Source: Shigella phage SSG23. From it: DNA of 64,000 bases. Both the position numbers and the translations under genes were made by a program. Location: sequence record PQ351811. One strand, written 5' to 3'. Positions 17,591 through 22,246 of the stretch are shown in pieces (the first letter of the stretch is position 1; every line of letters starts with the position of its first letter). Under the pieces are notes generated by a model. That model saw only the letters and a list, made by a program, of their open reading frames with translations, made no database searches and had not been told where the DNA came from.

Positions 17591-18619
17591 ATGATTTACT
17601 ACGCAGATTATGAAATAGCGGAAAAAGCCATATACGGCGAACGAAATTTTAAACGGTTGCATACTAGCTCATTTACGCTGGTCTGTAGTTGTCCGATCTG
17701 CGGTGACTCAAAGAAAAATCATACTCAAGCGCGATTCCGTATCTATACCTATAAGGATAGTTTGCGTTGTGGTTGTTTCAACTGTAACTACAATCAGCCG
17801 TTAGGTGAATTTCTCAAACAGTATAAGCCGGACCTATTCAGGGAATGGCTTATGGAACGACGGAAGGAACAAGGCGACCACAAGAACACCACGTTCAAGC
17901 CACTGAAAAAGGTAGAAAAGCCGGAGATTAAGAAAGTGCAAACATTGCCTTTCTGCGAGAGATTAGATACTCTTCCGGCTAATCATCCTATAATAAAGTA
18001 TGTCAGTGATCGTTGCATTCCCAACGATAAATGGGATCTTCTGTATTTCACGAGAGAATGGCAAAAGGTAGCAAATCACATTAAAGCGGATACCTTCAAG
18101 AATCCGCAACCTGAACCGCGTTTAGTGATTCCTATCTTTAACCGTGAGAACAAGATAGAATCCATTCAGGGGCGAGCATTGAGAAAGGATTACGGAAAGA
18201 CCAAATATATGACGATTAAAACTCATGAGTTAGCGAGTAAGGTCTACGGTCTTGAACGTGCTGATCCGAGCAAACCAGTGTACTTCTTAGAGGGTCCGAT
18301 AGATTCCCTGTTCATTGATAATGGATGTGCTATCACTGGCGGTACTTTGGGATTGGATGAAATTCCTTTCCCTGATCAGCGAGTGTTTGTACTTGACGCC
18401 GAACCACGGTCAGCCGATACAATGCACCGACTGGAAAAGTTTATCAATGCAGGGGAAAAGATTGTATTGTGGGATCGTTGCCCGTGGCATTCTAAAGACG
18501 TTAACGCCATGATTCAGGACGAGGGCGCTACACGCGACCAGATCATGGAATATATCAAAGAGAACACCGTACAAGGTCTGATGGCTAAAATGCGGTTTAT
18601 GAAATATTGTAAATTTTAA
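17591..18619 (+). CDS. 61: DNA primase gp61
   Basis: N-terminal zinc ribbon (CSCPICGD, CGCFNC) plus Toprim-like region; 342 aa as in T4. Confidence 0.9.
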   Translation: MIYYADYEIAEKAIYGERNFKRLHTSSFTLVCSCPICGDSKKNHTQARFRIYTYKDSLRCGCFNCNYNQPLGEFLKQYKPDLFREWLMERRKEQGDHKNTTFKPLKKVEKPEIKKVQTLPFCERLDTLPANHPIIKYVSDRCIPNDKWDLLYFTREWQKVANHIKADTFKNPQPEPRLVIPIFNRENKIESIQGRALRKDYGKTKYMTIKTHELASKVYGLERADPSKPVYFLEGPIDSLFIDNGCAITGGTLGLDEIPFPDQRVFVLDAEPRSADTMHRLEKFINAGEKIVLWDRCPWHSKDVNAMIQDEGATRDQIMEYIKENTVQGLMAKMRFMKYCKF

Positions 18620-18627
18620 TTAATGAG

Positions 18628-19152
18628 GTGAATATGTCAGAATTTAATTCTTGCGCTGGTCTGGTTAGCGACGAAACTATGTCTAAAGCTGGTATTGCGT
18701 ATTCCGAGGCAATCACTAGCGGCAAAGATCCGCTGCAAGTAATGTTAGATATGCAAAAAGGCTTACAGGTCGCACTAGCTGATAAATTTGAGTGGGTGCC
18801 GCATCCTGATAAGCTGGAAACTTGCGGGGAGATCCTTGATTGGATGAAGTTGTGGGATGACGCAATCGACGACGAGACACGAGAACTTTATGTTGCCCTG
18901 GGTGGCATGTCAAATGGCAAAGATGCAAGCGCAATTACTAAAGTGTGGAAGAAGAACCACGGCGAAGCACGAGCGCGTAAATTTGCTGATCTGTCAGATG
19001 ACGATAAAATCGAAATTGCGATGGAATTGATCGATATCTGGCATTTCGTGCTGATTAAAATGCTGGGCTTAGGTTTAACCGCTAAGGATATCTTCAAGCT
19101 GTACTACCTGAAAAATGCTGAAAATTTCGCCCGTCAAGAACGCGGCTACTAA
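18628..19152 (+). CDS. 56: dCTP pyrophosphatase gp56 (MazG-like)
   Basis: DPLQVMLDMQ, RELY, LGGMSNG and C-terminal FKLYYLKNAENFARQ match T4 gp56. Confidence 0.85.
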   Translation: MNMSEFNSCAGLVSDETMSKAGIAYSEAITSGKDPLQVMLDMQKGLQVALADKFEWVPHPDKLETCGEILDWMKLWDDAIDDETRELYVALGGMSNGKDASAITKVWKKNHGEARARKFADLSDDDKIEIAMELIDIWHFVLIKMLGLGLTAKDIFKLYYLKNAENFARQERGY

Positions 19153-19159
19153 AAATTAG

Positions 19160-19188
19160 TTGACACTACTCTATAATGGTTTTATTAT
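19160..19188 (+). promoter_or_regulatory. candidate early promoter
   Basis: TTGACA, 17 nt, TATTAT; a TATAAT also lies only 6 nt after the -35, so assignment is ambiguous. Confidence 0.35.
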
Positions 19189-19217
19189 GCCTCCCGTCGA
19201 AAGATTGGAGGCTTTTT
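19189..19217 (+). terminator. terminator-like hairpin that also contains the next gene's Shine-Dalgarno
   Basis: GCCTCC-cgtcgaaagatt-GGAGGC followed by TTTTTATT, then ATG 19221. Confidence 0.5.
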
Positions 19218-19220
19218 ATT

Positions 19221-19724
19221 ATGCAATTCACACCAGAAGAACTTAACATCATTGATGAAGTGATGAACTCTAAAGAAAATATCGATATGTCGATCCTTAA
19301 TGGATTGATTGAAAAGACTGAACGGTTAGTGCATCACGAAGCCTTGTATCGCGGTGTGAGCAAAAGAGAAGGCCGTAAGCTGGATACCTTAATTGTGGGT
19401 GATTCTTTCGTTGTAGAGCGTCCTATGAGCTTTACGCCACTACAATCAACAGCAGAGGACTTTGCAACCGATGTTTATGCAACAGGAAAGATTATTGCAG
19501 TAAAACCTACCAAGCCTTGCATGAATTATTACGAACATGCTATAGACCGAGTGGTGTCTAAAGAGTATGACAATCCGACTACTCGACTGTCTTTGTATGC
19601 TATGTTGGCTGATGAGCGCGAGTGCATATACAAGACAGGGACGACCATGATCCTTGATGAGATCGAGGAAGTTTACGCGTGCAATGGCGACCTGATAGAG
19701 ATTTACAAATTTTCTTTAATTTAA
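19221..19724 (+). CDS. putative ADP-ribosyltransferase (ModA/ModB-like)
   Basis: R-S-E-type triad candidates: LYRGVS, SFTPLQST, ADEREC; size and position near dda/56 fit T4 modA/modB. Start at ATG 19221 after a hairpin-embedded GGAGG. Confidence 0.45.
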   Translation: MQFTPEELNIIDEVMNSKENIDMSILNGLIEKTERLVHHEALYRGVSKREGRKLDTLIVGDSFVVERPMSFTPLQSTAEDFATDVYATGKIIAVKPTKPCMNYYEHAIDRVVSKEYDNPTTRLSLYAMLADERECIYKTGTTMILDEIEEVYACNGDLIEIYKFSLI

Positions 19725-19727
19725 GTG

Positions 19728-19757
19728 TTGACAGCACAAACCAGATAGACAATAATA
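19728..19757 (+). promoter_or_regulatory. candidate early promoter
   Basis: TTGACA, about 17 nt, AATAAT; conserved leader ...ACCAACTAAGGAGAATCA before ATG. Confidence 0.4.
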
Positions 19758-19785
19758 CACACATACCAACTAAGGAGAATCAATT

Positions 19786-20541
19786 ATGAAACTGTTTGCT
19801 TTTAAATCTAACGAAGAATTGGCGCTGGTTGTTTTCCGTTTGAACTCTATCATGGCTGGCGCTTCTCGTCGTAACAAAGACTTCTCTATGAGCTTAGTCA
19901 CTGTGCGTAACATCTATCGCCAGACTCATTGCGCATATTCAGGTGAGGCGTTCGGTGAAGGTGATGATGGACTCTCCTTAGAGCGCATTGATTGCAATCT
20001 GGGCTATGTTGATGGCAATGTGATTCCGGTTAAACTGAAATACAATTCTTTCCGTGGTAATCACACTATCGAATCTCTTAAAGAGATCCAGGAACTAGGA
20101 ACTAACGGTAAACTTTCTGATGATGAGATCGCCCTACGTGCAAAGTACATCGAGTGGATCGAACTTAACGAGAATCGCATCAAGAATCAGGAAATGGCGA
20201 TTGAAGAAAAGAAATTAGCGGTAGAACGCCACAAAAAGCACAATGAACCGGAGAAAGCAGAGGCAGCAGAGAAAGCAATTAAAAACACTCTCTTCCGTAT
20301 GGAAGAACGTTATCAGAAAATTGCAGATCTCAAGCAAGCCCTTAGCGAAATCAACAAGAAAGAGGAAAAACTTAAGGCTATTGCAAATAATACCGAAATC
20401 GTGCTAAAATATACCAGCGTTTTGATTGAATCTCTTTCTAAGTATGAGAACTTAACGCCAGCACAAAAAGAACGCGTGAAATACGGGCTTCCGATTGATG
20501 CGTCGTGGATTGAATTGATGAAAGCGAAGGTAGGTTTATAA
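19786..20541 (+). CDS. hypothetical protein with coiled-coil C-terminus
   Basis: N-terminal region resembles a degenerate HNH motif (CAYSGE, NVIPV, KYNSFRGNH); long charged helical C-terminus. Confidence 0.5.
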   Translation: MKLFAFKSNEELALVVFRLNSIMAGASRRNKDFSMSLVTVRNIYRQTHCAYSGEAFGEGDDGLSLERIDCNLGYVDGNVIPVKLKYNSFRGNHTIESLKEIQELGTNGKLSDDEIALRAKYIEWIELNENRIKNQEMAIEEKKLAVERHKKHNEPEKAEAAEKAIKNTLFRMEERYQKIADLKQALSEINKKEEKLKAIANNTEIVLKYTSVLIESLSKYENLTPAQKERVKYGLPIDASWIELMKAKVGL

Positions 20542-20855
20542 TGCATGTATTTGCTGTATGTTATCGTGATAAAGACGGATTCTTTCAATACTCAGTGGAC
20601 GCGAAAGGTCGCGTCCTAACTTGCGAAACACATGATGCAGCGTTAGCGTCAATGTGTGATCAGATAGATTATTGTGAGAGTCTATTGGCAGGTGAACCGA
20701 AATACAAGGTTGTGCCTAAACGAAAATTTGGTATAATCCGGTCTTCTGAAATTGTTCGGGATGGTGTAGAATACAAAATTCCAGACTATGAAAAAGAGCG
20801 GGTACGACGAGAACTCAATACTATCTGTGTTCGCAAGGTGAGGATTTTAGGATAA
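20541..20855 (+). CDS. hypothetical protein
   Basis: 104-aa ORF with ATG overlapping the upstream stop. Confidence 0.45.
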   Translation: MHVFAVCYRDKDGFFQYSVDAKGRVLTCETHDAALASMCDQIDYCESLLAGEPKYKVVPKRKFGIIRSSEIVRDGVEYKIPDYEKERVRRELNTICVRKVRILG

Positions 20856-22246
20856 TGAGCAGAGTATTAACTTTCGATATGTTGACAGACGGACAAAAAC
20901 ATGCTTTCGATGTTCTGATGAAACGCATTGAACAAAAGAAACATACAACTGTCCGAGGTGCGGCGGGTACTGGTAAAACCGCAATGATGAAATTCATTGT
21001 TCAGGAAATGGTCCGCCGTGGTGTAACTGGTGTGGTTTTGGCAACGCCTACCCACCAGGCTAAAAAAGTTTTGAGTAAGGCGGTAGGTCGTCAAGCATTT
21101 ACTTTACATGCTTTATTGCGTCTTAATCCGACCAATTATGAAGATACTCAAGTATTTGAACAAAAAGATACTCCTAAGCTAGATGATGTTCAGATCATCA
21201 TTGTTGATGAAGCGAGTATGGTCGATAAGAAGTTATTTGATATTCTCATGAAGAGTATCAACGGGCGAATTGTTATTATTGCCGTGGGTGATCCGCACCA
21301 GTTACGACCAGTTGATCCGAGCGGTGCAACGTCAATTTCTCCTTTCTTCACGGTTGAAGAGTTTCAGAACGTGGAGTTAACAGAAATTAAAAGGTCTAAT
21401 GCACCAATAATTGATGTGGCGACCGCTGTCCGTAACGGTAAATGGGTATTCGAAAAGCAGTGCGGTAACGAGGGTGTATTCCATAGCTCAACTCTACCGG
21501 AGTTTATGACTCGTTATTTTGAAGCAGTGAAAACGCCGGAAGACCTTCTAGAAAACCGTATTCTGGCTTACACTAATAAGAGTGTCGAAAAACTCAATGA
21601 AATTGTGCGTAAGCGCATTTACAATACAGAAGATCCGGTCATTGTAGATGAAATTCTGGTTACTCAGGAACCGTTGATCGAATATCTGCGAGATGAACGC
21701 GGGAAGAAGATTCCTAATGTGATTTTTAACAACGGTGAGATGATCCGAGTTAAAGAGGTTATACCGCGCGAATTTACATTACGTTGCACGGGGGTAGATC
21801 CGCAACCAGTTTTAGGGTATACTCTTAAAGTCGAAAGCGTCGATAATGACGAAGACAAAGAGATCCTGAATCAGAAAGTTGGTTTAGATGCAGTCGGAAT
21901 CACTACCGACAAACCGGATTTAGTAGAAATCAATATTCTGACAGAACAACGACAGAAGAACATTTTCTCTATCTACCTGAATACGGTAGCCGGACAATAT
22001 CGCGAAATGAAGAAAGAGAATCCAAACTTTAAACCAGATTGGGATTCTTTCTGGACGATGAAACGTATGTTCCTTAATGTAAAAGCATTACCAGCTTGCA
22101 CTATTCATAAGTCACAAGGGATCAGCGTAGACCGCGTGTTCCTGTATACTCCTTGCATGTGTACAGATAATGTTGACTTTGAACTGGCAATGCAGTTATT
22201 ATATGTGGGTGTTACCCGTGCACGTTATCGGGTAGACTATATTTGA
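20855..22246 (+). CDS. dda: DNA helicase Dda (SF1)
   Basis: LTDGQKHAFDV, Walker A GAAGTGKT, ATPTHQAKK and C-terminal LLYVGVTRARY match T4 Dda. Confidence 0.9.
   Translation: MSRVLTFDMLTDGQKHAFDVLMKRIEQKKHTTVRGAAGTGKTAMMKFIVQEMVRRGVTGVVLATPTHQAKKVLSKAVGRQAFTLHALLRLNPTNYEDTQVFEQKDTPKLDDVQIIIVDEASMVDKKLFDILMKSINGRIVIIAVGDPHQLRPVDPSGATSISPFFTVEEFQNVELTEIKRSNAPIIDVATAVRNGKWVFEKQCGNEGVFHSSTLPEFMTRYFEAVKTPEDLLENRILAYTNKSVEKLNEIVRKRIYNTEDPVIVDEILVTQEPLIEYLRDERGKKIPNVIFNNGEMIRVKEVIPREFTLRCTGVDPQPVLGYTLKVESVDNDEDKEILNQKVGLDAVGITTDKPDLVEINILTEQRQKNIFSIYLNTVAGQYREMKKENPNFKPDWDSFWTMKRMFLNVKALPACTIHKSQGISVDRVFLYTPCMCTDNVDFELAMQLLYVGVTRARYRVDYI

Follow-up and report, generated by a model that had tools for sequence, protein, structure and literature searches.

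In the established mechanism of ADP-ribosyltransferases (ARTs) of the R-S-ExE type, the arginine and the S-x-T element bind NAD+, the second glutamate is catalytic and the first one confers specificity for arginine. Phage T4 encodes two Mod enzymes, ModA and ModB, both of which carry the R-S-EXE motif of arginine-specific ARTs (PMC10468400). Arg265 of the alpha subunit of RNA polymerase is the target of ModA, while those of ModB are S1, EF-Tu, trigger factor and L2 (PMC3014915, PMC2988021, PMC10468400). Catalysis is lost in ModB R73A,G74A (PMC10468400), and ADP-ribosylation by ModA is abolished by E165A (PMC11404850). For ModB, RNAylation, that is, attachment of NAD-capped RNA, is documented as well (PMC10468400). 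Another set of T4 genes, namely e, soc, 49 and I-TevI, is translated or not according to the promoter from which the transcript was started (PMC3014915, section 29).

The window analysed here, a whole stretch of 64,000 nucleotides of Shigella phage SSG23 (PQ351811), carries a mod gene whose product is very probably a small, single-domain and catalytically competent mono-ADP-ribosyltransferase of the Mod family (R-S-ExE), probably made early and reprogramming host transcription and/or translation. No second mod or ART paralogue was found in the window when all six-frame open reading frames of at least 50 aa were searched with a Mod-family HMM. The open reading frame consists of 167 codons plus the stop, begins with ATG 10 nt downstream of a GGAGG and encodes a product of 19 kDa with a pI of 4.7 (Table 1). 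A sequence-only reading of this DNA had placed a Mod-like ADP-ribosyltransferase of roughly 168 aa here; the frame was borne out, with a stop codon following 167 rather than 168 amino acids. The assignment itself is now supported by homology, catalytic residues, predicted fold, synteny and purifying selection. An in-frame ATG at 19176, upstream of the leader hairpin described below, would extend the product to 182 aa, yet this start was rejected because it lies within the spacer of the promoter-like site, has no Shine-Dalgarno sequence and differs from the start annotated in public records. Automatic calling of the longest open reading frame would thus give mod a wrong start.

The ADP-ribosyltransferase identity is already known: Shigella phage SFHK24 has a 100% identical protein, annotated in GenBank as 'RNA polymerase ADP-ribosylase', and the family is represented in Pfam as PF26816 (Mod_ADP_RT). 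The sequence-only reading had therefore re-derived, correctly and from raw sequence, an existing annotation. Proteins named 'ModB' or 'ADP-ribosylase' in more than 50 RB49-like phages (Krischvirus) are at least 98.8% identical to the window protein, and the 701 bases around mod are 100% identical to SFHK24 and 95-99% identical to 57 other RB49-like records (Krischvirus, Straboviridae). Public names for the gene include 'RNA polymerase ADP-ribosylase', 'ADP-ribosylase', 'ModB ADP-ribosylase' and 'ModA or ModB ADP-ribosyltransferase'. In the searchable literature, no experimental work on the Krischvirus Mod was found.

Table 1. Positions of mod, its leader, its motifs and its neighbours in the window, and of the equivalent leaders at comparison loci.
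Feature	Position	Strand	Remarks
Gene 56 homologue (dCTPase / NTP pyrophosphohydrolase)	18634-19152	+	Upstream neighbour; annotation of the identical record SFHK24
Promoter-like site of mod, TTGACA-17 nt-TATTAT	19160-19188	+	Sigma-70/T4-early type; 11/12 consensus matches; putative function
Leader hairpin, GCCUCC-C-GUC-GAAA-GAU-U-GGAGGC	19189-19212, with U run to 19217	+	Centroid -15 kcal/mol
Shine-Dalgarno of mod, GGAGG	19206-19210	+	Annotated RBS in Ec_Makalu_003
mod	19221-19724	+	167-aa Mod-family ADP-ribosyltransferase (homology, motifs, predicted fold, selection)
LYRGVS (residues 42-47)	R44 at 19350-19352	+	
SFTPLQST (residues 70-77)	S70 at 19428-19430	+	
ADEREC (residues 130-135)	E132 at 19614-19616; E134 at 19620-19622	+	
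Promoter-like site of srd, TTGACA-17-AATAAT	19728-19756	+	Directly upstream of the srd start at 19786
srd homologue (anti-sigma factor)	19786-20541	+	Downstream neighbour
dda.1	20541-20855	+	After srd
dda	20855-22246	+	After dda.1
mod leader layout, window	19160-19220		
mod leader layout, L001	3355-3413		
mod leader layout, L003	1375-1413		
mod leader layout, L004	1403-1458		
mod leader layout, L005	1173-1209		
mod leader layout, L006	1400-1440		
mod leader layout, L012	460-498		
mod leader layout, L013	378-414		

Sequence, catalytic residues, predicted ART fold and genomic position all place the product in the Mod family (PHROG 832; PF26816). The resemblance to T4 Mod is not a matter of chance: PHROG 832 ('RNA polymerase ADP-ribosylase') matches the protein with an E value of 1.2e-20, and PF26816 is recorded for relatives that are 98%, 75% and 62% identical to it. 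By BLASTP, 33% identity to T4 ModB was found over 113 residues (residues 2-113; E 1e-10, 44 bits), and 23% identity to T4 ModA over 159 residues, that is, nearly the full length (E 1e-6, 32 bits). Scans of local copies of Pfam-A and NCBIfam returned nothing significant for this protein, T4 ModA or T4 ModB; as the local Pfam scan gave no PF26816 match for any Mod scanned, this result is not evidence against membership. Likewise, the PDB yielded no match in a single-sequence search and merely XopAI and Vis, at non-significant E values of 0.07-0.12, in a profile search, and no Mod-family structure was found among the solved structures searched.

The breadth of the family depended on how it was searched. 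Relatives were detected by tblastn in 464 phage records, 58 of them at 95% identity or above and the other 406, T4 modB included, below 60%. Word-indexed homologue searches gave only 3 and 9 clusters, and the family became visible only when 1.84 billion representatives were searched exhaustively with a profile; this returned 199 clusters at E <=1e-3 (17 of them at E <=1e-30). These comprise small stand-alone proteins (160-230 aa) and domains in giant proteins (1,000-7,000 aa). In P0025, P0031, P0032, P0041, P0074 and others, Mod-family domains, often several, are embedded in such giant proteins of 1,000-7,000 residues, which recall the phage and plasmid 'polyvalent proteins' of Iyer et al. 2017 (PMC5512222).

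The catalytic residues were compared across 11 aligned Mod sequences, which represent seven genera and two metagenomic relatives. T72 is invariant there, R44, G45, S70, E132 and E134 are also among the invariant columns, and these five correspond to R73, G74, S99, E171 and E173 of T4 ModB and to R72, G73, S96, E163 and E165 of T4 ModA, respectively. All three elements of the R-S-E arrangement that had been read from the raw sequence (LYRGVS, SFTPLQST and ADEREC) are present, and their motif residues fall in invariant columns of the 11-sequence family alignment. The sequence-only reading had also named fold prediction as a check, and an ART fold of the R-S-E clade was indeed predicted: the AlphaFold2 model, built from a 9-sequence alignment only, has a mean pLDDT of 91.3, a pTM of 0.84 and no low-confidence segment. 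Judging from the fold match, R44, S70 and E134 are predicted to converge in space.

Against predicted viral structures, the model matches PM2 Mod (TM 0.93), ModB of a Serratia phage (0.91) and a T4-like ModA (0.86). Its nearest folds are toxins that target protein arginine, asparagine or actin, whereas the ARTs acting on nucleic acids score far lower (Tpt1 5.4, Scabin 5.0, DarT 3.6-4.3 and pierisin 3.5). This ranking bears on a second suggestion of the sequence-only reading, which had pointed out that some ART folds modify nucleic acids. A Mod that acts on DNA or RNA bases or phosphates in the manner of DarT, pierisin, Scabin or Tpt1/KptA has only this general precedent in its favour. The hint found no specific support; with none of DarT, pierisin/Scabin or Tpt1/KptA among the nearest neighbours, the nucleic-acid reading was rejected on the fold ranking and is extremely improbable.

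Which Mod the gene encodes was examined by neighbour joining, a distance method only, with 47 members of the family and 100 bootstraps. The protein groups with P0002, P0003, P0012, P0013 and P0019, all of them short (161-176 aa), in 84 of the 100 replicates, and the core four of this short clade are recovered in every one. The other members of the clade are metagenomic; the best isolate matches of two of them, P0012 and P0019, are Krischvirus proteins, at 47% and 40% identity, respectively. Orthology to T4 ModA (grouping in 0 of 100 bootstraps) and orthology to T4 ModB (4 of 100) were both rejected. By this tree, the Krischvirus Mod is a separate short lineage, neither ModA nor ModB; therefore, host target and functional likeness to ModA versus ModB are matters that its sequence cannot decide. 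As it groups with neither T4 protein, the labels 'ModB' and 'RNA polymerase ADP-ribosylase' in public records reflect family membership only. Among the other members of the tree, genes that owe the label modA in some phages to their position, namely JS98 modA (L004, 2080-2691) and phiC120 mod (L007, 1405-2010), cluster with the large clade that contains ModB rather than with T4 ModA, and the ModA and ModB names are thus phylogenetically inconsistent beyond close relatives of T4.

The same data weigh on a more specific proposal, namely that Mod acts as T4 ModB does and attaches NAD-capped RNA to S1 and L2, which would be an additional activity compatible with the preferred reading. The higher pairwise score to ModB (44 versus 32 bits for ModA) and the name ModB in several public records speak for it; however, the two cluster in merely 4 of the 100 bootstraps, and RNAylation is not scorable from sequence, as both the determinants of NAD-RNA acceptance and a structure of ModB are lacking (PMC10468400, bioRxiv 10.1101/2025.07.11.664405). 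We regard a specifically ModB-like activity as unlikely.

The substitution pattern marks mod as a functional, conserved gene under purifying selection. Relative to the mod gene of RB49, 11 synonymous differences and one non-synonymous difference were found (dN/dS 0.023); relative to genes whose proteins are 75% and 62% identical, dN/dS is ~0.1, with synonymous sites saturated. Such selection also bears on the shortness of the protein, which lacks the N-terminal ~30 residues of T4 ModA and ModB and is 33-40 residues shorter than these overall. A degenerate and inactive remnant, truncated from a longer Mod, would share this shortness and the missing segment; yet no catalytic residue is lost, the high-confidence model includes the full ART core, purifying selection is strong and many family members (161-191 aa) share this starting point, so that a remnant is barely credible. 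The short N terminus is not a defect, because many members of the family likewise begin at this conserved F-x-x-x-E position.

The gene order, taken from the SFHK24 record, is primase 61, dCTPase 56, mod, srd, dda.1 and dda. In T4, gene 56 is followed by ~10 small genes (a homing-endonuclease gene, soc, mrh, srh and others) and then by modB, modA, srd, dda.1 and dda. The region between dda and 56, which had been singled out from the raw sequence as the place where T4 encodes modA and modB, is thus the same block by gene order. A second promoter-like site precedes srd, so that each of the two genes, mod and srd, seems to own an early promoter.

A diverged version of part of this block was seen in the metagenome contig k141_36743 (L009), which, compared with 18527-20200 of the window, is ~100% identical at the primase end and in srd but only 45-88% identical across 56 and mod. 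A diverged allele may have taken the place of the 56-mod module in an otherwise near-identical Krischvirus; alternatively, the contig is a chimeric assembly. The observation is pertinent to an alternative in which Mod chiefly serves counter-defence, by ADP-ribosylating a host immunity protein or by depleting or redirecting NAD+. Phage ARTs with anti-defence roles exist, for example AcrIF11 (PMC12421852), and a diverged module in an otherwise near-identical phage would fit diversifying pressure, although it may also stem from chimeric assembly. However, mod has no defence-related neighbour and sits with srd in a conserved early block of transcription modulators, and its dN/dS is low; a role that is chiefly counter-defence is very unlikely.

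The leader of mod is structured. The promoter-like site (kept in the relatives L009 and L010 and in RB49) is directly followed by a hairpin whose 3′ arm is the Shine-Dalgarno sequence of mod. Together with its U run, the hairpin looks terminator-like for transcripts arriving from gene 56, and the Ec_Makalu_003 record annotates a terminator at the equivalent of 19188-19219, overlapping the RBS. In L010, whose protein is 62% identical, a compensatory double change from U-A to C-G keeps the stem, and the GNRA loop is also kept. By RNA folding, an RNA started 7 nt past the -10 hexamer (~19195) would lack the 5′ arm and forms no hairpin. No Rfam family was matched in 19050-19850.

This promoter-in-hairpin layout precedes 10 of the 12 mod genes of T4-like phages that were examined. 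T4 (modB), S16, JS98 (modB), PM2 and one phage each of Klebsiella, Enterobacter and Erwinia have it ahead of their first mod gene. The -10 element of the early promoter is located within the 5′ arm or immediately before it, and the 3′ arm contains the Shine-Dalgarno sequence and, in many cases, the AUG. The sequences of the arms vary between phages while their complementarity is kept; the minimum free energies of the leaders lie between -15.7 and -22.3 kcal/mol, and the z scores between -2.1 and -5.4. Among the leaders examined, the layout was not found at JS98 modA, phiC120 mod and T4 modA, and the neighbouring srd leaders do not have it and for the most part lack structure.

If the T4 genes e, soc, 49 and I-TevI are a guide, the hairpin probably masks the RBS of mod in read-through transcripts only. 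Transcripts reading through from upstream would then be translationally silent, and only promoter-proximal ones would yield the toxic enzyme. In the literature consulted, no account of this device was found for mod, which is also absent from the genes of this kind given in the 2010 review of T4 (PMC3014915); older primary literature may describe it. If the leader hairpin is confirmed, toxic early enzymes would join the short list of T4 genes with promoter-dependent translation.

Taken with the catalytic residues, the preferred reading of Mod as a competent R-S-ExE enzyme leads to the following proposal. Its own sigma-70 promoter probably drives synthesis early in infection, and the enzyme would be cytoplasmic. 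NAD+ would be held by R44, on strand 1, together with the strand of S70-F-T72; E134 would serve as the catalytic glutamate and assist in breaking the nicotinamide-ribose bond, and E132, two residues before it, would direct transfer to the arginine guanidinium of a host protein. Mod would thereby help to reprogramme host transcription and/or translation, with candidate targets, by analogy with T4, being Arg265 of RNA polymerase alpha (if ModA-like) or S1, EF-Tu, trigger factor and L2 (if ModB-like). An extended version is put forward tentatively, as a possibility rather than an expectation: as a third, minimal Mod lineage and the sole Mod of its phage, the enzyme may cover the roles of both ModA and ModB or have targets of its own, possibly with RNAylation, and its synthesis may be gated by the leader hairpin device, which would let only promoter-proximal immediate-early transcripts be translated.

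As an ART call, the Krischvirus Mod adds nothing to present annotation. Its value is modest and lies in a naturally minimal Mod of 167 aa, without N-terminal extension and with a high-confidence model. Because no Mod-family structure is solved and the use of NAD-capped RNA by ModB but not ModA is unexplained, such a compact and divergent Mod could aid structural work and comparisons of specificity. The residual interest is in the separate short lineage and the conserved leader architecture.

Compared with known systems, the Krischvirus Mod is like T4 ModB (P39423) in family, in belonging to the R-S-ExE clade, in its aligned catalytic residues and in its position in the block upstream of srd-dda, and the modB leader too has an early promoter embedded in an RBS-covering hairpin. 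It differs from ModB in being 40 residues shorter, in lacking the N-terminal 30, in having a shorter insert before the ExE and in falling into another clade. With T4 ModA it shares the family, the equivalence of E134 to the essential E165 and a gene position adjoining srd, as modA lies immediately upstream of srd in T4; yet the similarity is lower than to ModB and the two were never grouped in 100 bootstraps, while T4 modA, unlike the gene described here, depends on translational coupling to modB and is not preceded by its own leader hairpin. Where the T4 block has modB plus modA, the Krischvirus block has a single mod. The bacterial R-S-E ADP-ribosylating toxins of the C3, VIP2, iota, Certhrax and Vis type are more distant (8-19% identity), and in contrast to these the Krischvirus Mod, the product of an intracellular phage early gene, has no secretion or translocation domain. 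T4 Alt, too, is an R-S-E ART found in T4-like phages, with RNA polymerase as a substrate, and PHROG 832 pools Alt, ModA and ModB; however, Alt is a large virion protein packaged in the head and belongs to the Alt/VIP2 rather than the Mod family (PMC9503650), and a separate, diverged alt has been reported for RB49 (PMC1524935).
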